Shown here piece by piece: positions 28,628 to 43,642 of a stretch of 64,000 nt of DNA. Every line of letters begins with the position of its first letter. The first letter of the stretch is position 1. Source of the stretch: a virus (taxonomy: Duplodnaviria > Caudoviricetes); IMG/VR virus record IMGVR_UViG_3300025410_000009. The stretch is one strand, 5' to 3'. Below the pieces are notes generated by a model. The model did no database searches. It was not told the origin of the DNA and worked only from the letters and a program-made list of their open reading frames with translations. A program made the position numbers and the translations under genes.

Positions 28628-29092
28628 TCAGCTGGCGTACCAAATTTGTGTAAACCCTTCTTGTTCAGTGGGCATTTCGAAACTGGCCAACATACCTTCG
28701 ATAATAGAATCGGGAATTTCTTTTCCTGGACGACTTGTTAATCGACGCTGTAATTCGATTCTGTCGGGAGTTTCAAATACTATGGCAACGTGTTCATAAT
28801 CGGGTAACATTCCAAACTTACGAGCTCGGCTTGCCACAGTGGTACTGGTTTGATCCCATATAATGTCTCGTTGCATTTCACGGGCTACACCAACTTCTTG
28901 TGCCATTAACTCTACAGCCCGGGGCATGAATTCTGCGAATACTTGGCTGTAGGTTTTACCCACTTCTTGAGCATAAGCATCCACAAACTTGTCAGTATTA
29001 ATATATGCACAGGTCATAGTCCAATCTTGATTGTTGACCCAAGTGGTTTTACCACTAGCAGGAACTCCAACAAGTTGATAACATTTGGGCAT
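28628..29092 (-). CDS. P-loop kinase (AAA_33/polynucleotide kinase-like)
   Basis: LVGVPASGKTT, IIWDQT, lid RRLTSRPGK. Confidence 0.8.
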   Translation of the reverse strand: MPKCYQLVGVPASGKTTWVNNQDWTMTCAYINTDKFVDAYAQEVGKTYSQVFAEFMPRAVELMAQEVGVAREMQRDIIWDQTSTTVASRARKFGMLPDYEHVAIVFETPDRIELQRRLTSRPGKEIPDSIIEGMLASFEMPTEQEGFTQIWYAS

Positions 29093-29093
29093 A

Positions 29094-29291
29094 TCACTTC
29101 CAGTCGTCGGTGTTGCTTAATCTTTCAATTTCATCGGCAGCTTCTTCTAACAAGTCTGCTATACGATCGCGGGCACCTTCCTCGACACTACGACGTCCAG
29201 GAATTTGCCTGCGAATTTCAGCCCGCTTTCTCAAACGGAACACTAGACTTTGTTCGCTTACTGGTAGATGACTTTCGTCTTTGTTGTTCAT
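29094..29291 (-). CDS. Hypothetical protein
   Basis: 65 aa ending in RIADLLEEAADEIERL. Confidence 0.65.
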   Translation of the reverse strand: MNNKDESHLPVSEQSLVFRLRKRAEIRRQIPGRRSVEEGARDRIADLLEEAADEIERLSNTDDWK

Positions 29292-29297
29292 GTTGGT

Positions 29298-29326
29298 ATT
29301 GTAACACAGGTCACGACCTGTGTCAA
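29298..29326 (-). promoter_or_regulatory. Sigma70 promoter with a palindromic spacer
   Basis: TTGACA-17 nt-TACAAT; ACACAGGTC-N2-GACCTGTGT at 29304-29323. Confidence 0.8.
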
Positions 29327-29328
29327 GC

Positions 29329-30480
29329 CTAGATCTCCCGATTTGGGTGTGTGGGATATCGTCTAGTGAGCCAGTCTAGATTGTCTCGTTTGGGGTTGGG
29401 TTCATACCATCCGCGGCGTCCGTAAATGTTTAGGATGCTAGCAAAGTATTCTTCAAACATGGGAGCCACTTTGTCAAACAAAAAGTTACTGCCCCATTCG
29501 CGACAGTTCAAGGGATTGATACGTCCGGCATTACGAGCAGCCCAAGTTATTTGTTCGAATGTTCTGCAACGATATCCGGTAACACCATGTAGATTCAATT
29601 CACCAAAGCAGGCCCAGTCAGTGCTGATCACAGGAGTCCCACTCAGCATGGCTTCAATTTGAACTCCACCAAACGGCTCACCGTACTGTGTCATGACAAA
29701 CTGTGCTCGTGCACGACTCATGAGCCGGCGTCGTGTTTCTACATCAGCATAGCCCACCAATTCCACATGGTCTGGCACCTTTTGATAACCCATGTCAGCA
29801 ATGCTGCCTTGTCCGGCAATTTTTAAACGAGCACCAATTTCGGCTGTGGCCTGTATGGCAATGTGTGTGCCCTTGTGTTCACCAACACGACCTAGATACA
29901 AGAAATAGTCGTCTTTTTCTTCACTGTAGTCAAAATCGCGGGCATCAAAATAATTGGGAATAACTGCATCATACCAGCTGAACTTGCCAGGACCTTTGAC
30001 AGCATCCATACCAAACCATGCGGCCATGATGCTTTGACTTTCAAACACTCGATAGGGTGCAAACACGCCGCCAGGATAACCAATACCGGGTTCAACCACC
30101 AGCATATCGGGATGTGCATCAGCAATGGCTTTGTGACCCCAACCCCAAAAGCACAATAAAAAATCATTGGGCTGTTTACGCAGTCCCACCTCACGTATGG
30201 CATTGTCGTAGAAGTATCGGTAAGCACTGTCGTTGAGATCGTACTTGAAGGTATTGGCACGCCAGTCATGGTCACCGTAGGCAGCATCTAGTACTGCATC
30301 ATTAGTGACTGCAACATTTTCATCACAGGCCACTGTACTACGATCATGTCCGTAGTGAATAATGGTATGGCCACGGCCTTGCATCATGTCACAGAATTTG
30401 ACCACCTTCTGTGTAAAAGCACAGGCCACATAGTCTTTGTTTGAAATGGTGTGTGGTACACCTAATACGTGAAATCTCAT
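29329..30480 (-). CDS. Glycosyltransferase, GT-B (GT4-like)
   Basis: FLYLGRVGEHKG, EPFGGVQIEAMLSGTPVISTDW. Confidence 0.9.
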   Translation of the reverse strand: MRFHVLGVPHTISNKDYVACAFTQKVVKFCDMMQGRGHTIIHYGHDRSTVACDENVAVTNDAVLDAAYGDHDWRANTFKYDLNDSAYRYFYDNAIREVGLRKQPNDFLLCFWGWGHKAIADAHPDMLVVEPGIGYPGGVFAPYRVFESQSIMAAWFGMDAVKGPGKFSWYDAVIPNYFDARDFDYSEEKDDYFLYLGRVGEHKGTHIAIQATAEIGARLKIAGQGSIADMGYQKVPDHVELVGYADVETRRRLMSRARAQFVMTQYGEPFGGVQIEAMLSGTPVISTDWACFGELNLHGVTGYRCRTFEQITWAARNAGRINPLNCREWGSNFLFDKVAPMFEEYFASILNIYGRRGWYEPNPKRDNLDWLTRRYPTHPNREI

Positions 30481-31265
30481 ACGGGTGGTTGAAAAATTGG
30501 TGTAATGTATCTATTGTGTGTTAGGCTGTACGAACCCACTGGATAGCGATGATGATAGTGCCATCCCGGGTAGCCAGATCTACCACCTAAGGTATTACTG
30601 ACTTCAGCCCAAACTGGATTGCCGGATGCTATCCAAGCTTCGTGATCAAATCGATAAAGATTTTTATCTATGGTATAACCTGTGTACTCGCTGACCGAGC
30701 CCATGACATAGCTGTCGGGATGTGGCAAAGGTTTTAATCGTTTGATGTAACTGGTACGTGCCCACCAAAAACCACCGCTGTAGTGTGGCCAGTCTCGAGT
30801 TTTCAAATCGGCGCCCATAAACGGAACATCAATATAATTGGTACCACAAGTTTCATAACCTTGATCCAACAGCTGAACATTTTCTTGCCACTGATCAATG
30901 GTCCAATACTCCATGTATTCACGCCAGTCATGAATGCCTTGGTGCCCTTTATGTGTGATGCCTTTAAGGTGAAAATACATGATGTATTCTTCTTGTTCGG
31001 TACGATCAGCAATGTCTTTGACCAGCATCAGAGCCGGGTATTCCATTAGGTCGCTACGGTCTGATGTATGACACAATCTGACATTAGAGTAACCCGACAG
31101 CGACTGTGCCAGTGTAAGAAATTTGGTGATGTCACCATTCAGGCTGACATAGATATCAGCTCTAGTGCCCAGCTCAGTGGCCATTAATCGTTGCAGTTGT
31201 GCAACACTTTGTTCTTCGCTGCCGGGCAAATCGCAGCATTGGTAAACAACATTGAGTTTGGTCAT
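30477..31265 (-). CDS. Putative glycosyltransferase-like protein
   Basis: YFHLKG, HYSGGFWWARTSYI motifs; position in the sugar operon. Confidence 0.45.
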   Translation of the reverse strand: MTKLNVVYQCCDLPGSEEQSVAQLQRLMATELGTRADIYVSLNGDITKFLTLAQSLSGYSNVRLCHTSDRSDLMEYPALMLVKDIADRTEQEEYIMYFHLKGITHKGHQGIHDWREYMEYWTIDQWQENVQLLDQGYETCGTNYIDVPFMGADLKTRDWPHYSGGFWWARTSYIKRLKPLPHPDSYVMGSVSEYTGYTIDKNLYRFDHEAWIASGNPVWAEVSNTLGGRSGYPGWHYHHRYPVGSYSLTHNRYITPIFQPPV

Positions 31266-31276
31266 ATGGAGTATCT

Positions 31277-32119
31277 TTATAATAATGATTTAAGTTGTGT
31301 CATGGCATGATCAACATCAAATCGCCGCACACATTCGTTGTCCTGGCGAGCACATTTGTACCCCAATAGTGGCGCAGGCAATGTTTCAACACAGCCGTAA
31401 CATTCAATGTTGCTGGCAATGTTGATATGCCGGGCTTGACGATATCGAGGTTCGCGATATTCGGCACGTACTGCAGTGAAAAATCCCAATATTGGAGTTT
31501 CAGTACAAGCAGCCACATGCAGTAGGCCGGCATCTACACCAACAAAAGCACTGGCGCGATCTATCAAGGCCAAATTTTGATGTACTGTTAATTTATTGAC
31601 CAAGTTGACCAATTTACCAGGAATGTCTCTAACAAAATAGTCAGTGCCGTGTCCCACCAACACAATGGCATGATCCAATTCTTTAAGTATACGAAGAATC
31701 AATTCCTTGTAAAATTCCATTGGCAGATTACGATTGGGACCGTGATACTTACGCAGATGCAATACAACGAACCGGTCCGACAACTTTAAGTTGTCAATGA
31801 ACTCGCGGTCAGTGTGATCAGCAAACATTTCAGGTTTCAGATCTTCAACAGCAACATTGGCTCGTTCGGCATAGGCCTCAATTGGATGCAGCTTGGGTTT
31901 TAATTCGTAGGCTTGATCCAGGTTAATCACTAGATCAAACAGGGCAGGATCAACCTTAGTGGCAGCAGTGGCATAGGGGCTACGATCAAACACCAGTGGG
32001 TTTTCAGTCGAGACCACTATTTCACAGTCAGGCTGATACTTGTTGTACAAGGCTCTAACGATCCCGGTGGACAATATGACATCGCCCAAGGCCTGTTGGC
32101 GTACTACCAAAATCTTCAT
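31277..32119 (-). CDS. Glycosyltransferase family 9 (heptosyltransferase-like)
   Basis: RQQALGDVILST, FVGVDAGLLHVAAC. Confidence 0.85.
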   Translation of the reverse strand: MKILVVRQQALGDVILSTGIVRALYNKYQPDCEIVVSTENPLVFDRSPYATAATKVDPALFDLVINLDQAYELKPKLHPIEAYAERANVAVEDLKPEMFADHTDREFIDNLKLSDRFVVLHLRKYHGPNRNLPMEFYKELILRILKELDHAIVLVGHGTDYFVRDIPGKLVNLVNKLTVHQNLALIDRASAFVGVDAGLLHVAACTETPILGFFTAVRAEYREPRYRQARHINIASNIECYGCVETLPAPLLGYKCARQDNECVRRFDVDHAMTQLKSLL

Positions 32120-33354
32120 GTGGACTCTACGCTGACTCGAGGGAAGTAACGCAAGAATCGATCATGTTCGATACGACCACGTTCGGCCAGTATGCGATCG
32201 CGTATCTCGTTATAGAAGTTCCAAGCTAAGGGTATGAACAAGATTGGCTGTGACTCAGGAATGGTCTTTAACACATCGATACCAACTACGGGCACATGAA
32301 GTCCCGGGCTTACAAGACCCTGCTTCATGGGATTGTCATCAATGATCATGTCAGGGCTAATTTTGACAAAATTCAGCAAGGTATTGCCTTTGGCCGCAGC
32401 ACCATATCCGATTATTTTATAATTGCGTTCATGGAACAACTCAAAATGCATTCGGGTGCGGAACGCTGTTTCGTTTACAGTACGACTCCAACTGCGATAA
32501 GTTTCTATGTTGTACAAGCCGCTTAGTTTTTCCAATTGCACCTTGTTGTCAATTCGGCTGGGGTAGCTTTGGTTTACGCCCAACACAAACACATAGCTGG
32601 TGCCGTGTATGGGTGTTTTTTGTACATCCACTAGATTGAATCCAGTACGAGCACACAGTCTACGCATACTTTCGATATTGTAGAAGTTGACGTGTTCATG
32701 ATAGATGGTGTCAAATTCGTTGTTCAATACCATGTCCGATTGGCTGGTTTGAATAAAGAACAAGCCGTCAGGATTGATAATTTTACGTAGCGCAGTCAAG
32801 TAGCCCACTGGATCGGGCACATGAGCAAAACTGTTTTGTGCCACCACAAGATCCATCTGACCATGCTGAGCCATAAACCGATCAGCTGAATCAGCATTAA
32901 AGAAGTCACACATGATGGTGTGCTCTTGACTACTGGTGGGGTAGAGATTTTCAGCAGGGTCAATACCGTAGGTGTCTAGTCCCAACTGTTTGAAGTAGTG
33001 CAACTGTGTGCCGTCGTTGCAACCAATGTCCAGCACTCGACTGGGAGCGTCGTGAAAGTATTCACGTGCAAAGGTGGCAAACCACTCCATGTATTGGTGT
33101 TGAGTACGACTGGTACCGCTCACATACAAATAGTGTGTGTAAATCAAGCCAGGATCCACAGCATGTGTCAATTGCAAATGGCAGCAGTCATGACACACAT
33201 TTACCGCCAAGGGATAGAACGATTCGGGGTCGGTGGCGGTGGCCAAAAAATTATTGGCCAAGGGTTGATCGTTAAGGTCTAAGACCAATTCCAAATGATT
33301 GCCACCACAGGCCAAACATTCAGTCAAGTGTTTTGCTCCAGCAATATCTGTCAT
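32116..33354 (-). CDS. NDP-hexose C-methyltransferase (Zn-binding N-terminus, C-terminal domain)
   Basis: CLACG, QPLANNF, CHDCCHLQL, VLDIGCNDG, FDTIYHEH, GYGAAAKGNTLL, IDDNP. Confidence 0.88.
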   Translation of the reverse strand: MTDIAGAKHLTECLACGGNHLELVLDLNDQPLANNFLATATDPESFYPLAVNVCHDCCHLQLTHAVDPGLIYTHYLYVSGTSRTQHQYMEWFATFAREYFHDAPSRVLDIGCNDGTQLHYFKQLGLDTYGIDPAENLYPTSSQEHTIMCDFFNADSADRFMAQHGQMDLVVAQNSFAHVPDPVGYLTALRKIINPDGLFFIQTSQSDMVLNNEFDTIYHEHVNFYNIESMRRLCARTGFNLVDVQKTPIHGTSYVFVLGVNQSYPSRIDNKVQLEKLSGLYNIETYRSWSRTVNETAFRTRMHFELFHERNYKIIGYGAAAKGNTLLNFVKISPDMIIDDNPMKQGLVSPGLHVPVVGIDVLKTIPESQPILFIPLAWNFYNEIRDRILAERGRIEHDRFLRYFPRVSVEST

Positions 33355-33355
33355 G

Positions 33356-34111
33356 TCAATTCCTAATAGGGGCACCGTTGGGGGCAATGTTACCAGTCAC
33401 ACCCATTACGTCTCGGTTAATGACCTTGTTGGCATCTAAAAATTTATACAGGCAGTGCTCGATGTCGGCATAACCGCCAGCGGCCAAACGCTCGTACATG
33501 TATTGCAAACTGTTTTCGTAGGCTTGGATGACTTCTTCGTTGAGTGTAGTGGGCCAAGACCAAAGACGACACATGTACTGTGCTTCAACCAGGGTCACCG
33601 AGTACGGAAACTGACTGGACTGTTTGTGACCAATCACCATGCTGTGTTGATTCTTGTAGTCATCATAGAAGCCGATATCAAAACGCTCGTCCAAGATGTA
33701 TCTGCCGCTGACCTTGAACACACGCTGAAACTCGCCCAGCATGTCAACATCACGTGTCAATTTCTTAAGTGCGTTACCAAAACACATGACTTCGGTCACA
33801 TTCTTGACCACGTCCCAGTTATCGGTACTGTTGTACAAGCCAACCACGTCGGGGTCGGTGGTGAAGTCAATCACGTGATCAACTTGAGCAGTCAAGGTTT
33901 CGGCTTGACTGGCTGTCAGTGACACTCCGGAAATTTCTAATAAGAAAATCTTACAACCTGGGATGCGCTCACGCACACTGGCAATGGTGTCCAGTGTTTG
34001 TGCTAGTCGTTGTTCTGAACTGTAAACACCAAACTTGGTGTTAATTGCGCTGGTAATGATTACCGCATATTGATTTACTTGCTGAGCCAACGTGTGTTCT
34101 CCAAGGTCCAT
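33356..34111 (-). CDS. Hypothetical protein, putative glycosyltransferase
   Basis: IITSAINT...QTLDTIASVRERIP, FKVSGRY; sugar operon context. Confidence 0.45.
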   Translation of the reverse strand: MDLGEHTLAQQVNQYAVIITSAINTKFGVYSSEQRLAQTLDTIASVRERIPGCKIFLLEISGVSLTASQAETLTAQVDHVIDFTTDPDVVGLYNSTDNWDVVKNVTEVMCFGNALKKLTRDVDMLGEFQRVFKVSGRYILDERFDIGFYDDYKNQHSMVIGHKQSSQFPYSVTLVEAQYMCRLWSWPTTLNEEVIQAYENSLQYMYERLAAGGYADIEHCLYKFLDANKVINRDVMGVTGNIAPNGAPIRN

Positions 34112-35109
34112 TTTGTCATTTCTGTGATGCGATCACTCAACTTAATTTTTGGTTCCCAACCCAGGCTCTTTAACAAGCCACCATCAAGTGCATAACGCAA
34201 GTCATGTCCCGGGCGGCTGCCATGGAAGTCAACCATTTCATAGTTCAACACTTTGTCTTGTGCCTTGGCAATCATTTGAGCCAGGGTCAAGTTGTCAATT
34301 TCTTCAGTGCCCACCAAGTTGAATTTGGGGCAACGAGCATGACCATAGTCGCCATGATGTTTGTAATCTTTAAGTCCCAAGATAAACATCAAGCCTTCGG
34401 CTACATCTCGTGCATGAATGTACATGCGTGTGCCAGCATGGCGACGTGTGGGATCTGCGTGAATGTAGACTTTTTCTCCGTCTCGGGCACGTTGAATCAC
34501 CATGGGAATAAACTTCTCAGGGTGCTGGCGTTCGCCAAACACATTCATGGTATGAGTGACCACAATGGGCATTTTGTAAGTATTCTCATATGCCACACAG
34601 AATTCTTCAGCTGCCGCCTTTGAAGCTGAATACGGATTAGTTGAGTTGTATCTATCATATTCTTTATAGCTCACTCCGGGTGGTGCAACACCAAAAATTT
34701 CATCAGTTGAAAAATAAACAAAACGCTCTAGATTAGGCAAGTGTTTACGTGCATAGTCCAGCATGTTGACAGTGCCCACGGTGTTGTCTAACACAAATTC
34801 CATGGGGTATGTGATGCTACGATCCACGTGACTGCTGGCACCCAAATGCAACACGATGTCAATGGGACCAATGTCCTTGACAATCATTTCATTTAGTTCG
34901 GCCTTGAAGTCATGGAACACAATACGCAGACGTCCAGCAACGTCAACGGGATCATGCTCTTGTAGCATGTCGTGCAAGCGATTAAGGTTACCGGAAATGT
35001 CTAGTCGATCTAGACACACAATATTCCAGTCGGTGTCGGACAAGATTTTGTCGACCACATGGTGTGCAATAAAACCGGCACCACCGGTGATTAGTACGTT
35101 TTTGCTCAT
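34075..35109 (-). CDS. rmlB: dTDP-glucose 4,6-dehydratase (RmlB-like)
   Basis: GGAGFIA, SHVDRSI, STDEIFG, YSASK, NVFGERQHPEKFIP, RPGHDLRY. Confidence 0.9.
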   Translation of the reverse strand: MSKNVLITGGAGFIAHHVVDKILSDTDWNIVCLDRLDISGNLNRLHDMLQEHDPVDVAGRLRIVFHDFKAELNEMIVKDIGPIDIVLHLGASSHVDRSITYPMEFVLDNTVGTVNMLDYARKHLPNLERFVYFSTDEIFGVAPPGVSYKEYDRYNSTNPYSASKAAAEEFCVAYENTYKMPIVVTHTMNVFGERQHPEKFIPMVIQRARDGEKVYIHADPTRRHAGTRMYIHARDVAEGLMFILGLKDYKHHGDYGHARCPKFNLVGTEEIDNLTLAQMIAKAQDKVLNYEMVDFHGSRPGHDLRYALDGGLLKSLGWEPKIKLSDRITEMTKWTLENTRWLSK

Positions 35110-35390: not shown

Positions 35391-35855
35391 TTATTTTAAC
35401 TGTTTTACCATACGCACAAATTCAGGCACATACCCGTTGGCTTTGGCTATGTCCCGAATTCGTGTGTTATCAACGTGCAACATGCTGCCAGCACGAGTGC
35501 ACTTGTTGCGGCGTGCAGAAACTTCAAAAAATTGATGCAACTGGGCATACAACCCACGTCCTTGATATTGATTGTGTACATTAGTAAAAACAATCCAGGC
35601 CAAATCACTGTCAAATCTAAAGGTTATACTGGCTGCAATGGTGTCGCCATACTTGATATAGATTGTGGGATTGTTAGTAAACGGTACGGTACTGCCAATA
35701 GGCGCATGCCCGGCATCCAGCAGGTCGGCATACTGTCTCAATACTGTAGTATATAATGTGGGCACATCTTTGATACTACTGGTGTACCAAGCAGTATAGG
35801 TATCGCCCAATTTATCAGTCCCAGTTTTAATTTGAAAGTGAGTAATTTCAGTCAC
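35391..35855 (-). CDS. GNAT-family acetyl/acyltransferase
   Basis: VFTNVHNQYQGRGLY motif A; N...AKANGY. Confidence 0.8.
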   Translation of the reverse strand: MTEITHFQIKTGTDKLGDTYTAWYTSSIKDVPTLYTTVLRQYADLLDAGHAPIGSTVPFTNNPTIYIKYGDTIAASITFRFDSDLAWIVFTNVHNQYQGRGLYAQLHQFFEVSARRNKCTRAGSMLHVDNTRIRDIAKANGYVPEFVRMVKQLK

Positions 35856-36657
35856 GGCGTGAGCGTCCTAATACAGGTAAAAATATAACACAGGGATCAA
35901 ACTCCCACCACCGACCACTGGTGCCGCGGCCAAAATCAAAATTGGCTGGTCTAGCATGATGATTGTTGTGCCAGCCTTGACCCCAGCCCAAATAGCCCAA
36001 TACAAAATTATTTTGGCTATGATCTCGAGTGTCGAAGTTTCTATAACCAATCAAGGCCTTGACATGTCCAAACACATTGACAGCATTGTCCTGCAATAGT
36101 CCAACCATGCCGGGAATGAAACACATGCTCATGGCCAAACGCCAATCGTACAGGGCAATCACGGCCGGTGTCAACCACAATATCTCGTAGCAGTACTTGT
36201 GAAAGAACACAAAATTGGGTTTCTTGAGTAAGTCAACTGCATATTTCAAATTGACCACATTGAATGTGTCACTGTTGATCCAGCCCATGAAGGCTTGCCA
36301 TCGGCTGTAGGCCACTGGGCTATGATAATCTTTTGCAGTATCAGCGTGGGGGTGATGATATCCTCGATGTAGTGCTACCCAAAAAATACAAGAACCCTGA
36401 CCCGACAAGGTGGCAAAGAATAGTATGATGTTTTCTTTCCAAGTGGGTATCACATGTGTTTTGTGACTAAAAATTCTATGATAACCCACAGCAATACCCA
36501 GTCCCGAAATCAAGCACCACATGATCAATGATGACCATAGGTATACCAAGGGTATGATGCCTATAGCAAACAACACCGTGGTCACCAGGCCCATGGTCAG
36601 CAAAGGTACCACGCCAAACCACATGCCGCGATTGACATTAAATCTATTAAAAAACAT
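35848..36657 (-). CDS. Membrane acyl desaturase (delta-9/OLE1-like)
   Basis: His boxes HRIFSH, HRGYHH, WHNNHH; NAVN; TM helices. Confidence 0.9.
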   Translation of the reverse strand: MFFNRFNVNRGMWFGVVPLLTMGLVTTVLFAIGIIPLVYLWSSLIMWCLISGLGIAVGYHRIFSHKTHVIPTWKENIILFFATLSGQGSCIFWVALHRGYHHPHADTAKDYHSPVAYSRWQAFMGWINSDTFNVVNLKYAVDLLKKPNFVFFHKYCYEILWLTPAVIALYDWRLAMSMCFIPGMVGLLQDNAVNVFGHVKALIGYRNFDTRDHSQNNFVLGYLGWGQGWHNNHHARPANFDFGRGTSGRWWEFDPCVIFLPVLGRSRRD

Positions 36658-37259
36658 TATATGTTGCCCCCAATTGGTAATACTGTGCGGAATTCTTGTT
36701 TTAAAAAACTGCATCGCACAATACTGTCTGTGGGCAGCAGGCTACGCTTAAACAATAACTCCCAATCTCGATTGTAATAAGTTTTGTATTTAGCTGGTAC
36801 CATGTACTCGTCAACATAGTGATAACGATTGCTGTTGTATTCACTCCAGTACAGTCTACGTAGAATACGTGCATGGTCAGCATTGACCAAAGAATACACC
36901 TTTAATCTACCCTGTGCTTCTTGCATGGCAATAATGACATCCAAGATGTCTTTGAGTAGTGCATTGTTGCCATTGGATCTTGCCAGGGTATAGTACCAGC
37001 TGGGCTCATCGACACTGGTATAGTAACACACAAATGCATGCACGATACCCGCTTCGTCTATAGCACCATAGGCACCAAAGTTATTGAGATCACCAATATA
37101 GGCATTGCAAAATCTGTCGAATGTGGCATGAGCAAAAGTTTCGGGGTCAGTGTCCCACGTCTGTTGGTTTACCTCGGCACCCATGTATTTTTCATTGAAA
37201 AACAAATCGCGCACACCTGCACGATGTTCTTCGGTGAGCTTAACTATGTTCATGATCAA
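36657..37259 (-). CDS. Hypothetical protein, possibly GNAT-fold
   Basis: AYGAIDEAGIVHAFV beta hairpin; coupled in the ACP operon. Confidence 0.45.
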   Translation of the reverse strand: MIMNIVKLTEEHRAGVRDLFFNEKYMGAEVNQQTWDTDPETFAHATFDRFCNAYIGDLNNFGAYGAIDEAGIVHAFVCYYTSVDEPSWYYTLARSNGNNALLKDILDVIIAMQEAQGRLKVYSLVNADHARILRRLYWSEYNSNRYHYVDEYMVPAKYKTYYNRDWELLFKRSLLPTDSIVRCSFLKQEFRTVLPIGGNI

Positions 37260-38169
37260 TTCCCAATTGTTTGTATAATTCAGTTAAAGGTATGCCGTCA
37301 AGACTGGATTCTAATCTACGCACATGAGTTTGGTTCAGCGTATTGTAGGTTTCTTCATTGAATCCCAGCAATTTTTCGTAGCCGGTGGTCTTGGCCTTGC
37401 GTATCAAGTTGGGCATGTACTGATACAGCACTGAATTTTTAGTGCTCACGCTGCCCAGCTTGTAATTGAATCTTTCACGGACCATGCTGGCTATTGTGGG
37501 ATGACGTAGATAATACACCATCATTTCAGGAGTATAGCTGAACCACTCGTTTACCAGTGGCAAATTGTATTTGAGGCTAAAGCGCATGGCGCTGGCATCT
37601 TCGTTTTCGCGAATCACATAGTACCAATAACTGTCGCCGTTGGCAGGTACTTGTCGACGCAACAGCATCTCACCACCCATCACAGCCGGTAGGCCCATTT
37701 TTTTAATTTGGTTGTAGACTGTGAGATAAGCCATCTGACGACAAGCAATCTCACCAGCAAATTCGGCTGCGGCGCCACTGCGGTAAAATTCTCGAATGTT
37801 GACGTCGGCTACTTCGAGCTCGAGATCTAGTTGTTCGCACACCAACCGTGCATTGATATAGTCAATGTTGTTGTAGCGATTTTCAAATCGTATGAATACT
37901 GCACGAGGTCGAACACCAATTTTGAGAAATGCACGTAGCACTATCTCACTGTCAGTCCCGCCCGAAAACATGACCACAAAATCTTTGCCAAATTGATCAC
38001 GCACAGCTTCGGCAGTACGATATTGTTCATTCAGCCAGTTGCTGGTACGTAGTTGGTCTGGGTCAACTGTACCCACTGCCACACGATAACGATCAGTGGG
38101 CCATTCTCTAGTGCCGTAAAGTCTATCTTCGATCCAGTATTTTAAATGATTGCCTAGGGTAAATTCCAT
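37240..38169 (-). CDS. PP-loop ATP pyrophosphatase-like protein (asparagine synthetase/TilS superfamily)
   Basis: VVMFSGGTDSEIV followed by a Rossmann-like alpha/beta pattern. Confidence 0.65.
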   Translation of the reverse strand: MEFTLGNHLKYWIEDRLYGTREWPTDRYRVAVGTVDPDQLRTSNWLNEQYRTAEAVRDQFGKDFVVMFSGGTDSEIVLRAFLKIGVRPRAVFIRFENRYNNIDYINARLVCEQLDLELEVADVNIREFYRSGAAAEFAGEIACRQMAYLTVYNQIKKMGLPAVMGGEMLLRRQVPANGDSYWYYVIRENEDASAMRFSLKYNLPLVNEWFSYTPEMMVYYLRHPTIASMVRERFNYKLGSVSTKNSVLYQYMPNLIRKAKTTGYEKLLGFNEETYNTLNQTHVRRLESSLDGIPLTELYKQLGIDHEHS

Positions 38170-38183
38170 GTCAAATCATTTTC

Positions 38184-38408
38184 TTAGATCAAAACCATCA
38201 GATCCCCAAAAGTCACTGGTGCAGAATCAGGATCGGGAATTTCACGTCCCAGAGTCTCTTCGATCCACATTTGCAGTTCAATCGAATCTAGGCTATCTAG
38301 TCCCACATCAGTCAATTTGACTTCGGGTGTGATTTCCACAGTCAGCGGTTTCTTTTTAACTGCTTCTAGGCCTTTTATGATTAACTCGAGTTTTTCAGTA
38401 TCAGTCAT
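38184..38408 (-). CDS. Acyl carrier protein
   Basis: LTDVGLDSLDSIEL phosphopantetheine attachment motif; acidic 74 aa. Confidence 0.9.
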   Translation of the reverse strand: MTDTEKLELIIKGLEAVKKKPLTVEITPEVKLTDVGLDSLDSIELQMWIEETLGREIPDPDSAPVTFGDLMVLI

Positions 38409-38423
38409 GATGTTCCTTGTTGA

Positions 38424-39035
38424 TCAAATATTTATTTGACCCCGGCTCCATGCTTGTAATTCAGCCAAGTTGATTTGACTGTCGGTTTGACACACTGGCT
38501 TTATCACACACCATTGCGGTGTCGATCGTATACGTACTTGTTTTTCAACAGCCACACAGTCGTCCCACCACGAACTCCAACCGCGGGTGACTCGATACAG
38601 CCCACGTGCCACTGCCACATGCAGGCCTCGATTGTAGTCATTGAATGTCAACAACATAAAATTACAACCACGCTCACGTGCCCAAATCAACTGTTGATCA
38701 AGAAATTGACTGGGCAATTGCTGTGTTCTATGTTGGTCGGTGATCCATATACGTATGCCACCAATGGCCCAGGCCTGGGTATTTTCAGGATACTCTACAC
38801 AACTCACTGCCACAATTTGGTTGCTGTGCTCGGCCACATAAATGGCGCCTTGATCGCTGTTCCACCGCAGTTGATTTTTTATGTTGTACAGCAGGCCGGC
38901 TGTGGAATCCATGCCCATGTTTGCCGCTGCCGGCTCAGTGCTGTTGGCAATTTCCTGATTGACAAAGTCTGACAGCTTGGAAAATTCTGTGTCAGTGATG
39001 GTGTTGCTGGTAGTGGACCAGAATGTGTAATTCAT
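38424..39035 (-). CDS. GNAT-fold protein
   Basis: IVAVS, IRIWITDQHR...WARERGC; true start MNYTFW because the longer track ORF overlaps the tRNA. Confidence 0.6.
   Translation of the reverse strand: MNYTFWSTTSNTITDTEFSKLSDFVNQEIANSTEPAAANMGMDSTAGLLYNIKNQLRWNSDQGAIYVAEHSNQIVAVSCVEYPENTQAWAIGGIRIWITDQHRTQQLPSQFLDQQLIWARERGCNFMLLTFNDYNRGLHVAVARGLYRVTRGWSSWWDDCVAVEKQVRIRSTPQWCVIKPVCQTDSQINLAELQAWSRGQINI
38429..38434 (-). promoter_or_regulatory. T4-type late promoter for the ACP operon
   Basis: AATAAATA followed by AAGGA RBS and the ACP ATG. Confidence 0.65.
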
Positions 39036-39346: not shown

Positions 39347-39423
39347 TGGTGCGCCCACTAGGACTTGAACCTAGGACCAATGGATTATGAGTCCACTGCT
39401 CTGACCAACTGAGCTATAGGCGC
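39347..39423 (-). tRNA. tRNA with CAU anticodon, most likely tRNA-Ile2
   Basis: Full cloverleaf, GTGGA-CTCATAA-TCCAT, C4-G69 and C5-G68 pairs, encoded CCA; lacks initiator features. Confidence 0.88.
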
Positions 39424-39435
39424 TACTAAGTGTTA

Positions 39436-39464
39436 ATTATAGCACTAGGTGTGCGTGGTGTCAA
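39436..39464 (-). promoter_or_regulatory. Consensus sigma70 promoter for the tRNA operon
   Basis: TTGACA-17 nt-TATAAT, 12 nt upstream of the tRNA 5' end. Confidence 0.9.
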
Positions 39465-41103: not shown

Positions 41104-41667
41104 ATGCCATTACAAACTGTTAGACGGGTACTACCGCATGAGTACTCTAAATATCGTACGCACCTTAAAGCCCTTGACTCAGACTCTAGGACCCTTAGGT
41201 TTGCTAATCCAGTCTCTGATTTTATAATTGATCAGTTTTGCGATGGTGTTGAGGCAGAACCCAGCCGACACATACTGTTTGCAGTGGAAGATAGCGAGTT
41301 AAACTTTATTGCTGTGGGACATATTGCCCGTTTTGAGCCCATGGAGTTGGCTTTTAGCGTGTTAAAAGAATACCAAGGACAAGGCCTTGGTAATCGTTTG
41401 ATGGAACGTTGTATACAGTGGTGTCGTGTGCACGACATACTGGAAGGTACCATGATTTGTTTGACGCATAACAGCGCCATACGTCACTTGTGCCGCAAAC
41501 ACGGTATTGCTGTCACCACCGAAGCAGGTGAAGCCTTGGCTGATATTCGTTTGCCACCTGCTGACATGACCACATTCATAAGCGAAACTGTGGACAACAA
41601 TGTGTCAACTTTGGATTGGTTTGCCAAACGAGTGGCTAGGCTGGCCCCCCGGTTAACAACTCAATAA
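41104..41667 (+). CDS. GNAT-family acetyltransferase
   Basis: RFAN, ELAFSVLKEYQGQGLGNRLM, NSAIRHLCRKHG. Confidence 0.9.
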   Translation: MPLQTVRRVLPHEYSKYRTHLKALDSDSRTLRFANPVSDFIIDQFCDGVEAEPSRHILFAVEDSELNFIAVGHIARFEPMELAFSVLKEYQGQGLGNRLMERCIQWCRVHDILEGTMICLTHNSAIRHLCRKHGIAVTTEAGEALADIRLPPADMTTFISETVDNNVSTLDWFAKRVARLAPRLTTQ

Positions 41668-42344: not shown

Positions 42345-42575
42345 TCAGTCTTCGTAGTTTTCGTAATCTTCTGCGTCTTCTTCAGTGTCGCTGTATTCTT
42401 CATAACTGCGCTTGAGATAGCTGTCAACACCAACCAGTTCGGTGATGTCAAGATCGTTTAATTCATCAACCATGACACTCATTAAACTATCTGCGGCGCC
42501 TTGACGCTCCTTAGGAGGAATATATTCTTTTAAGGTGGTATATACTTCAATTAAGGTTTCAATTTCGATACTCAT
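42345..42575 (-). CDS. Hypothetical acidic protein
   Basis: 76 aa between uvsX and uvsY. Confidence 0.65.
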   Translation of the reverse strand: MSIEIETLIEVYTTLKEYIPPKERQGAADSLMSVMVDELNDLDITELVGVDSYLKRSYEEYSDTEEDAEDYENYED

Positions 42576-43642
42576 TCTACGGTTTCCTCTTCGGGTTCAA
42601 CAGCAGTGGTAGTGGCATGCGGATTGGCTGTGTAATCTACCATGACCTTATCTAGCGAACCATCTTCGTTGCGTTCCCATGCTTTACGGAACTGCTTGAT
42701 AATGGTACCATCTGCTAGAGTGTATTTAAGACTGTTGCCTTCCTTGGTCAATAAACCTTTGCCTTCAAACAGGTCAACCAGGCCCGAGTACGGGTTCATG
42801 CCCGACTCATAAGGAATCTTGACCTGCACACTTTCAAAAGGCTTGGCATAGCGTGTTTTCATGATTTTACATGCGGCACGAATACCTTTGACTTCTGAAA
42901 TCTTGTTGCCGTCCTCGTCCTCTTTGAGCTTGAGTTTTTTCATAGCAACCACAATCGAGCTGGCATAGATAAAGCCTTGTCCGCCCGAGATCTTGTCATC
43001 GGGATCAAACATGTCTTGGCTGGCGTAAGTGTGATTGGTAGCAACTAGACCAATGTTCAAGTCGCCAAACATGTTAACACAGTTACGAACCAAGGCAGTC
43101 AATGCTTTAGGTTTACGGCCCATGTCACCTTTAAGGTCGCCGGCTTCAAATTGGTTAACGTCAGTGGGAGTCAACAACATGCCCAAGCTGTCTAAGATAA
43201 ACAAAACTTTTGGACGTTCTGTTTCAGGCAAGGTCTTGTACTCTTTAACAAATTCATGAATCATCTTCGCAACGTCGTCGATCATGGCCATGTTTAATTT
43301 GAGCAGTTTGTCTTCGCTGGTGTCAACACCTAGAGCGTGTAGCCATGCTTCATCGAGAGCGTTTTCTGTATCAATCAGGATAACGTAGATGCCTTGAGAT
43401 TGTGCATTTTTAACTAGATTGCCCGAGCAGATAAAACTTTTTCCTGCGCCAGACTCACCAGCAAACACCGTAACTTTGCCCATGGGCACTCCCTTGTGGA
43501 AGTCACCCGAAATCAAGTAGTTGAGTGCGTAGTTGTTGGTAGACACCCAGTCAGTGGGGTCTTTAAAGCCGAAGCTGATGCCATCGATGCTTTTTGTAAT
43601 ACTTTTTCTGAATTTACTTACGTCAAATGGACGATTTGCCAT
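42572..43642 (-). CDS. uvsX: RecA-like recombinase UvsX
   Basis: FAGESGAGKS, IDTENA, ILDSLGML, TNHTY, SGGQG. Confidence 0.95.
   Translation of the reverse strand: MANRPFDVSKFRKSITKSIDGISFGFKDPTDWVSTNNYALNYLISGDFHKGVPMGKVTVFAGESGAGKSFICSGNLVKNAQSQGIYVILIDTENALDEAWLHALGVDTSEDKLLKLNMAMIDDVAKMIHEFVKEYKTLPETERPKVLFILDSLGMLLTPTDVNQFEAGDLKGDMGRKPKALTALVRNCVNMFGDLNIGLVATNHTYASQDMFDPDDKISGGQGFIYASSIVVAMKKLKLKEDEDGNKISEVKGIRAACKIMKTRYAKPFESVQVKIPYESGMNPYSGLVDLFEGKGLLTKEGNSLKYTLADGTIIKQFRKAWERNEDGSLDKVMVDYTANPHATTTAVEPEEETVE

Follow-up and report, generated by a model that had tools for sequence, protein, structure and literature searches.

A conserved phage gene cassette joining a PP-loop synthetase, a cryptic GNAT-fold protein and a membrane desaturase, with a possible role in the synthesis of unsaturated acyl amides

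The virus record IMGVR_UViG_3300025410_000009 (Duplodnaviria; Caudoviricetes) provided the 64,000 nt stretch of DNA analyzed here, which we call the window. Six genes on the same (minus) strand, spanning 3.6 kb, occupy positions 35391–39035 of the window, and all their open reading frames (ORFs) were confirmed. They encode an acyl carrier protein (ACP), a PP-loop enzyme, a membrane desaturase and three proteins that we designate GNAT-A, GNAT-M and GNAT-B, as follows from the 5′ to the 3′ end of the group (numbers of loci refer to the set of 54 loci described below):

38424–39035, minus strand: GNAT-A, 203 aa, divergent GNAT-fold acyltransferase; accessory, 39 of 54 loci
38184–38408, minus strand: ACP, 74 aa, PF00550, with the serine of the DSL motif for phosphopantetheine attachment
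37240–38169, minus strand: PP-loop enzyme, 309 aa, predicted stand-alone AsnB-type synthetase domain without glutaminase domain
36657–37253, minus strand: GNAT-M, 198 aa, predicted cryptic GNAT fold; the gene overlaps the PP-loop gene
35848–36657, minus strand: desaturase, 269 aa, predicted SCD1-type (delta-9 class) membrane di-iron fatty-acyl desaturase
35391–35855, minus strand: GNAT-B, 154 aa, GNAT acetyltransferase family; accessory, 11 of 54 loci

Intergenic gaps are of 15 nt between GNAT-A and ACP and of 14 nt between ACP and the PP-loop gene, and the remaining genes overlap by 14 nt (PP-loop/GNAT-M), 1 nt (GNAT-M/desaturase) and 8 nt (desaturase/GNAT-B). With gaps of no more than 15 nt or overlaps throughout, the layout is therefore that of a single operon whose genes appear to be translationally coupled, in agreement with a first-pass annotation of the window, made from the sequence alone, that had described a contiguous cluster of co-oriented genes. 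For GNAT-A, the ATG at 39035 was taken as the start because a longer ORF, starting with GTG and reaching 39071, invades the 3′ end of the upstream tRNA gene; the ESM Atlas entry for this protein likewise begins at the residue of the 39035 start. The likeliest start of the desaturase is the ATG inside a TAATG stop/start overlap.

Homologs of the PP-loop enzyme form 772 clusters (at 90% identity) in metagenomes, mostly around 60% identical and on contigs of up to 361 kb. In IMG/VR we found 73 loci or contigs with PP-loop homologs, to which three more loci were added from large contigs; ORFs were called in all loci, family profiles were built and the genes were clustered. Collapsing at 95% identity of the PP-loop enzyme, with a requirement for sufficient flanking sequence, left a set of 54 loci from uncultured large phages, whose PP-loop enzymes show identities of 46–87%. 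The synteny search, which had been proposed as a check in the first-pass annotation, revealed co-conservation far above chance: the PP-loop gene is immediately followed by that for GNAT-M in all 54 loci, and a desaturase gene is adjacent to this pair in 53 of them, following GNAT-M in 43 and just upstream of the PP-loop gene in 10. GNAT-A is found within 2.5 kb in 39 loci, GNAT-B in 11, and a gene for an RmlB-like enzyme within 7 kb in eight. The flanking regions vary, with genes for ribonucleotide reductase, glutaredoxin, PAAR and cell-wall hydrolase in many loci; the window and its closest relatives are flanked by tRNA genes and sugar genes. From the counts per locus and the differing flanks, therefore, the fixed core consists of the PP-loop enzyme, GNAT-M and the desaturase, and the ACP, GNAT-B and the sugar genes stand outside it. 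The earlier description of the six genes as a mini biosynthetic cluster thus holds in that they form part of a conserved, coupled module, but the fixed core of this module does not include the ACP.

The PP-loop motif S69-G-G-T-D-S74 (SGGxDS) is invariant or nearly so in 26 homologs, in keeping with the previous assignment of this protein as a PP-loop adenylating enzyme. Sequence-level matches are weak and N-terminal, to QueC, LarE and WbuX: in Pfam, the window protein has no match to PF00733 (Asn_synthase) and retrieves QueC alone, below the cut-off (E = 4e-4); a profile search of the PDB with the family gave motif-level matches only (E ≥ 0.07), and PHROGs just a weak QueC-like match. Two distant relatives match PF00733 at E ~0.006. 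We predicted the structures of the PP-loop enzyme and of GNAT-M with AlphaFold, each with an alignment of 26 homologs. The PDB structures nearest to the model of the PP-loop enzyme, which has a pLDDT (predicted local distance difference test) of 85, are human ASNS (Z 15.1), Escherichia coli AsnB (Z 14.4) and beta-lactam synthetase (Z 13.4), followed by carbapenam synthetase (Z 12.1) and the hydroxyamidotransferase TsnB9 (Z 11.4); the other PP-loop enzymes LarE, NadE, QueC, TilS and MnmA all match at Z ≤ 10.3 (Z 8 for TilS and QueC). Likewise, the best AFDB clusters are stand-alone proteins of 323–329 aa annotated as “asparagine synthetase domain”, with template modeling (TM) scores of 0.73 and 0.67. 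The N-terminal, Ntn-type glutaminase domain is missing from the 309-aa protein, and the structural alignment begins at residue 117 of ASNS and covers the synthetase domain only. As judged from the model, then, the enzyme is predicted to be an amide synthetase of the AsnB/beta-lactam synthetase type, which narrows the earlier assignment to a glutaminase-less synthetase domain. Enzymes of the AsnB class adenylate a carboxylate and then pass it to a nitrogen nucleophile.

The structural matches and the synteny also bear on the idea that the six genes are a chance grouping of auxiliary genes, with a desaturase for membrane fluidity like those of cyanophages and pelagiphages, stray acetyltransferases and a PP-loop enzyme of the tRNA or queuosine type tied to the tRNA genes. 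Other phages do encode desaturases, the operon abuts tRNA genes, including tRNA-Met(CAU), and the weak matches to QueC, LarE and WbuX would fit. Nevertheless, we consider this extremely improbable: the three core genes are adjacent in 53–54 of the 54 loci in spite of PP-loop identities of 46–87% and of varied flanks, the genes overlap as in translational coupling, domain fusions occur, and the modeled structure is much nearer to AsnB than to TilS or QueC. Because the core synteny is conserved, juxtaposition by chance is taken to be excluded, and the grouping of unrelated auxiliary genes is largely refuted. A role in tRNA modification (TilS- or TmcA-like, next to tRNA-CAU) was rejected because the fold is far nearer to AsnB than to TilS and because the membrane desaturase is nearly obligate.

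GNAT-M, listed as an unknown protein in the first-pass annotation, turned out from its structure model to be a third, cryptic GNAT-fold protein. The model (pLDDT 86) matches 3fix at Z 13.8 and reaches Z ≥ 8 with at least 200 PDB representatives; every match listed is a GNAT. No Pfam family was found at E ≤ 1 for any of 26 members of the GNAT-M family, and PHROGs returned no family for GNAT-M and none for GNAT-A. The pyrophosphate-binding motif of GNATs (Q/R-x-x-G-x-G/A) is approximated in GNAT-M by R94-S-N-G97-N-N, in which R94 is invariant and G97 nearly so. The two GNAT-fold proteins that had been assigned to the ends of the operon were recovered as such, GNAT-A by its fold and GNAT-B by PF00583 (23.4 bits; cut-off 20.7). 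GNAT-A falls just below the cut-off of the Pfam GNAT family (19.2 bits; cut-off 20.7) and a PDB profile search with its family gave nothing meaningful, and its Atlas model matches clusters of GNATs at a TM score of 0.71. GNATs carry acyl groups from pantetheine thioesters over to amines. On the opposite strand, 2 kb upstream of the operon (41104–41667, plus), lies the gene for a fourth GNAT with weak Pat/RimI similarity, which is present in three related loci only.

The desaturase exceeds the cut-off of PF00487 (33.4 bits; cut-off 29.7), and a profile of 22 members of its family matches mouse and human SCD1 (4ymk, E = 5e-21; second match, E = 2e-19). The residues H79, H84, H116, H120, H121, N213, H217, H249, H252 and H253 (numbering of a 288-aa ORF) are invariant in the 22 sequences; they make up the full set of ligands of SCD1, that is, the three histidine boxes plus the additional His and Asn. 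Among the six proteins, long hydrophobic segments are confined to the desaturase. The three-His-box desaturase recognized earlier is thus confirmed, and its sequence predicts a membrane fatty-acyl desaturase of the SCD1 type. Enzymes of the SCD type act at the membrane, where they introduce double bonds into long acyl chains, and relatives in the superfamily act as hydroxylases or acetylenases too. Membrane desaturases act on acyl-ACP in the JamABC and polyyne pathways (PMC8341276; PMC9828172).

A library-wide profile search retrieved 984 clusters (at 50% identity) related to the PP-loop enzyme, among them distant fusions of the GNAT-PP-loop (P0250, P0254, and P0281) and PP-loop-GNAT (P0294) types. 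The fusion relatives are on phage-like contigs (L081–L084), none of them with a desaturase; a gene for an Asp/Arg hydroxylase is close by in L081–L083 and genes for aminoacyl-tRNA synthetases in L084. Among 185,579 species genomes of GTDB we found one distant relative (323 aa, 32% identity), using a pattern-based scan that may miss others. It is in an 8.9-kb contig of a Bdellovibrionales metagenome-assembled genome (JAPKGD010000045.1; L007, 4936–7651), where genes for a GNAT and two Asp/Arg-hydroxylase-like proteins come after the PP-loop relative, in the neighborhood of genes for a Crp-family regulator, a metallo-beta-lactamase-fold protein and an ATP-grasp protein. As the fusion relatives show, the PP-loop/GNAT pair is a broader phage module.

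The ACP, identified earlier by its GLDSL sequence, is well supported, since it passes the cut-off of PF00550 (31.1 bits; cut-off 20.8) and D38-S39-L40, with the serine of the DSL motif, is invariant in 15 homologs. An ACP gene is adjacent to the cassette in 26 of the 54 loci and found anywhere in the locus in 27; GNAT-A directly borders the PP-loop gene in many loci, leaving no space for an ACP, and no phosphopantetheine (PP)-binding domain was detected anywhere in a CheckV-complete relative of 524 kb that carries the cassette. In one relative, GNAT-A and ACP form an in-frame fusion of 255 aa (L026, 6237–7004, plus strand). Genes for a phosphopantetheinyl transferase (PPTase) of the AcpS type (PF01648, E = 4e-16) occur inside the islands of two relatives (L044, 11536–11895, and L059, 9272–9664, both on the plus strand), in L044 directly after a second desaturase gene, which supports the prediction that the phage ACPs are real holo-carriers. 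In line with what had been noted before, no AcpS-like PPTase was found among the ORFs of the window with a phage AcpS as the query. A ketosynthase is absent from the records of five relatives, the set covered by this search, in which AMP-binding ligases (PF00501) are either absent or more than 45 kb away from the cassette, and neither the ORF list nor Pfam indicated an ANL-type fatty acyl-AMP/ACP ligase in the operon. With neither a ketosynthase nor a nearby AMP-binding ligase in these records, the host must be the source of the acyl chain, and the sole ATP-dependent activating enzyme of the module is the PP-loop enzyme.

These data allow an evaluation of a thiotemplated route of the JamABC or mbtK-N manner, in which the PP-loop enzyme would adenylate a free fatty acid and load it onto the phage ACP, the desaturase would act on the acyl-ACP and a GNAT would off-load the chain to an amine. 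PP-loop chemistry may end in a thioester, as in LarE. The PP-loop gene follows the ACP gene after 14 nt, its product is the only activating enzyme in a cassette with no ANL ligase in it or near it, two relatives have a PPTase within their islands and another one the GNAT-A::ACP fusion; additionally, JamB-type membrane desaturases require a dedicated ACP (PMC8341276; bioRxiv 10.1101/291195). Even so, we consider this route unlikely: the ACP is missing in 27–28 of the 54 loci whereas the PP-loop enzyme is universal, no PP-binding domain accompanies the cassette in the complete 524-kb relative, the nearest structures are amide synthetases and not thiol ligases, and it is GNAT-M, rather than the ACP, with which the PP-loop enzyme is invariably paired. 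The patchiness of the ACP and the partnership with GNAT-M thus argue, although not decisively, against the PP-loop enzyme as a loader. Modeled as a complex in a run without controls, the PP-loop enzyme and the ACP scored 0.00, which speaks neither for nor against an interaction. Since the ACP is lacking from half of the loci and from the complete relative, a thiotemplated route is not obligatory, and the loading of an acyl group on the phage ACP, which the first-pass annotation had placed at the center of the pathway, does not hold that position.

Desaturation of an acyl chain and its transfer to an amine is the most economical reading of these genes. We propose that the likeliest product of the operon, made or modified inside the infected cell, is an unsaturated fatty-acyl compound with an amide link, a proposal that we regard as about evenly poised; the folds, families, gene coupling, co-conservation and fusions are observations, from which we infer the substrates, the order of the steps and the product. 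A fatty acyl chain made by the host would be presented in thioester linkage, either on the phage's own ACP or, in phages that lack this gene, on the host ACP or on coenzyme A (CoA), and the membrane desaturase would put in a double bond. The GNAT-fold proteins would then transfer the acyl group to an amino group of a small acceptor molecule (for instance, an amino acid, a polyamine or a peptide), and the AsnB-type enzyme would close a second amide on the free carboxylate; less likely, the AsnB-type enzyme would activate the fatty acid itself. GNAT-M, always located after the PP-loop enzyme, probably works together with it, and GNAT-A and GNAT-B, as well as many 2-oxoglutarate-dependent oxygenases and radical SAM enzymes in relatives, may diversify the product. 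Given the modeled AsnB-type fold and the invariant GNAT-M partner, fused to it in distant relatives, the PP-loop enzyme is as likely to form amides as to load the ACP, if not more so. A bolder version, which we put forward only tentatively, is that the glutaminase-less AsnB-type enzyme and the cryptic GNAT constitute a two-component (sometimes fused) ligase and that, with the SCD-type desaturase, they define a new route to a new class of unsaturated N-acyl amide lipids or lipopeptides.

Several of our results weigh against the synthesis of such an acyl amide. GNAT-M lacks any family match at the sequence level and could be non-catalytic, because its motif for CoA/pantetheine binding is only approximate; additionally, no acyl-ACP-specific GNATs of the LuxI, FeeM, OlsB or MbtK types were found among the matches listed for GNAT-M and GNAT-A. 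The absence of the ACP from half of the non-redundant loci, and of any PP-binding domain from the complete relative, points in the same direction. Likewise, the relatives without a desaturase show that the PP-loop/GNAT pair can serve non-lipid substrates, and the SPASM radical SAM and Asp/Arg-hydroxylase-like neighbors found in relatives fit peptide or protein substrates equally well.

These neighbors are frequent in the islands of the relatives: Asp/Arg-hydroxylase-like cupins are present in 49 of 78 loci, and profile comparison relates four more families to them; TauD dioxygenases are present in 33 loci, a radical SAM family of about 500 aa in 17 and a SPASM radical SAM family in 17. Islands also contain additional paralogs of the PP-loop enzyme and of the desaturase, including paralogous pairs (L004–L080). 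There are no cupin or TauD families in the whole 64 kb of the window, which therefore represents a minimal version. AsnB-type enzymes are also the cyclases of lasso peptides, and GNATs attach chains borne by acyl-ACP to ribosomally synthesized and post-translationally modified peptides (RiPPs). The module could accordingly N-acylate and amidate or cyclize a ribosomal peptide, or a protein of the phage or the host, following a lipopeptide or RiPP-like logic; the richness of the relatives' islands in cupins, TauD and SPASM and other radical SAM enzymes would suit this function, as would the location of desaturase-less PP-loop/GNAT relatives among phage genes. We deem it rather improbable, considering that neither the oxygenase nor the radical SAM families occur anywhere in the window, that the N-terminal domain of the lasso cyclases is missing from the phage enzyme and that a nearly obligate membrane desaturase suggests a lipid chain. 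Parts of a lasso synthetase (a precursor-like small ORF, a RiPP recognition element, or RRE, and a transglutaminase-like protease) were not apparent among the six genes either, although no search dedicated to RREs or proteases was made.

Upstream of the operon, a pattern match identified a consensus sigma-70-type promoter at 39464–39436 (minus strand; TTGACA-17-TATAAT with a TG extension, matching at 12 of 12 positions), with a tRNA-Met(CAU) gene directly 3′ of it (39347–39423, minus). A second tRNA gene ends a few bases before the start of GNAT-A, so that two tRNA genes abut the operon. The promoter is a possible early entry point, or one for the host RNA polymerase, from which the operon may be read through. 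The late promoter formerly placed before the ACP was reduced to an ATAAATA sequence at 38429–38435 (minus), about 20 nt 5′ of the ACP start, that matches the core of T4-type late promoters at 7 of 8 positions; a motif scan found no exact TATAAATA there or elsewhere near the operon. ATAAATA occurs 15 times in the window, as compared with 9.4 expected, and 13 of these are on the minus strand; it is at most a weak candidate for a late promoter of the ACP.

Downstream of the cassette, positions 28628–35109 (minus) contain a gene set resembling a deoxysugar and glycosylation operon. Its genes encode an RmlB-like 4,6-dehydratase, an unknown protein of 251 aa, an NDP-hexose C-methyltransferase, a GT9 enzyme, an unknown protein of 262 aa, a GT4-type glycosyltransferase and an AAA_33 kinase-like protein; family annotation recognized no sugar aminotransferase among them. 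The deoxysugar of this operon could conceivably receive an unsaturated acyl or amide substituent from the cassette and end up on the lipopolysaccharide of the host or on a virion glycan. ACP-dependent N-acylation of amino sugars is known in O-antigen pathways, the sugar operon abuts the cassette in the window and its closest relatives, and RmlB also adjoins a differently arranged cassette in four loci (L054, L060, L062, and L074). Still, such a decoration seems highly unlikely to us, as RmlB is within 7 kb in only eight of the 54 loci, most cassettes adjoin unrelated genes and no aminotransferase was recognized that could be the source of an amine acceptor. With RmlB in 8 and GNAT-B in 11 of the 54 loci, both are accessory, and the glycan acceptor that had been suggested from the adjacent sugar operon is therefore weakly supported.

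The virus itself, judging by its genes and distribution, is a freshwater jumbo phage. Its UvsX/RecA-like recombinase (42572–43642, minus) is 63–69% identical to those of phages of 340–490 kb, namely Vibrio phage 2.275.O, Agrobacterium phage Atu_ph07, Pectobacterium phage CBB and Cronobacter phage GAP32, and at least 91% of the sampled words of the stretch are present in six freshwater metagenome DNA runs from 2017, three of which were flagged as possible sources; no RNA runs containing it are listed among public runs.

Megablast of the whole cluster against 50,697 GenBank phage records returned no match, tblastn against the same records gave none for the PP-loop enzyme or GNAT-M, and the desaturase has just three distant homologs among GenBank phages. 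The lipid desaturases of Pelagibacter phage Mosig and Acinetobacter phage MD-2021a are, likewise, membrane fatty-acid desaturases borne by phages, but show only 26–28% identity to that of the window over 70–76% of the protein. The literature searched contained no paper joining phage, ACP, desaturase, GNAT and asparagine synthetase, and hence no description of a phage pathway with this architecture, as the first-pass annotation had also remarked.

Nonetheless, the operon is not categorically new, because all of its parts come from known superfamilies and its logic resembles that of JamABC plus mbtK-N. Four functional roles within one small locus match between mbtK-N and the phage operon: reportedly, in the work of Krithika et al. 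in 2006, MbtK is a GNAT that transfers a carrier-bound acyl group to an amine, MbtL an ACP, MbtM an adenylating enzyme and MbtN the enzyme that introduces a double bond in the carrier-bound chain. However, neither MbtM, an ANL ligase, nor MbtN, a flavin acyl-ACP dehydrogenase, is homologous to the phage PP-loop enzyme or di-iron desaturase, and mycobactin has a known acceptor. The genes mbtK-mbtN form a set in the mycobactin mbt-2 locus (PMC10667711). JamABC/TtuABC and the polyyne (cay/pgn) cassettes are like the phage operon in combining an ATP-dependent activating enzyme, a dedicated small ACP and a membrane di-iron desaturase, which works in them on the carrier-bound acyl chain (PMC8341276; PMC9828172; bioRxiv 10.1101/291195). 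Conversely, JamABC-type systems use an ANL-type fatty acyl-AMP/ACP ligase where the phage operon has only the AsnB-type PP-loop synthetase, and the operon lacks a thioesterase and a hand-off to a polyketide synthase or non-ribosomal peptide synthetase; it has two or three GNAT-fold proteins in addition, half of the phage loci dispense with the ACP, and the desaturase is SCD1-like with no sign of an acetylenase. As to the AsnB class (AsnB/ASNS, beta-lactam synthetase, carbapenam synthetase, and TsnB9), its members match the phage enzyme over about 250 residues (Z 11.4–15.1) and share SGGxDS, but the latter has no glutaminase-type domain and is a stand-alone protein of 309 aa, always paired with or fused to a GNAT.

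Auxiliary genes of phages are usually single enzymes that boost host metabolism, whereas here we find a multi-enzyme module, linked to a carrier protein, across many uncultured giant phages. Should the product prove to be a defined lipid or lipopeptide, specialized metabolites would have phages among their sources, the pairing of an AsnB-type synthetase with a GNAT would be new and possibly a new way of activating or amidating acyl groups, and the module would offer a handle on how jumbo phages alter the envelope or the signaling of their hosts. In particular, if the new route to N-acyl amides exists, its product could be a signal, a toxin or superinfection-exclusion factor, or a membrane remodeler, and the cassette would represent phage-borne biosynthesis of natural products, diversified in relatives by oxygenases and radical SAM enzymes.

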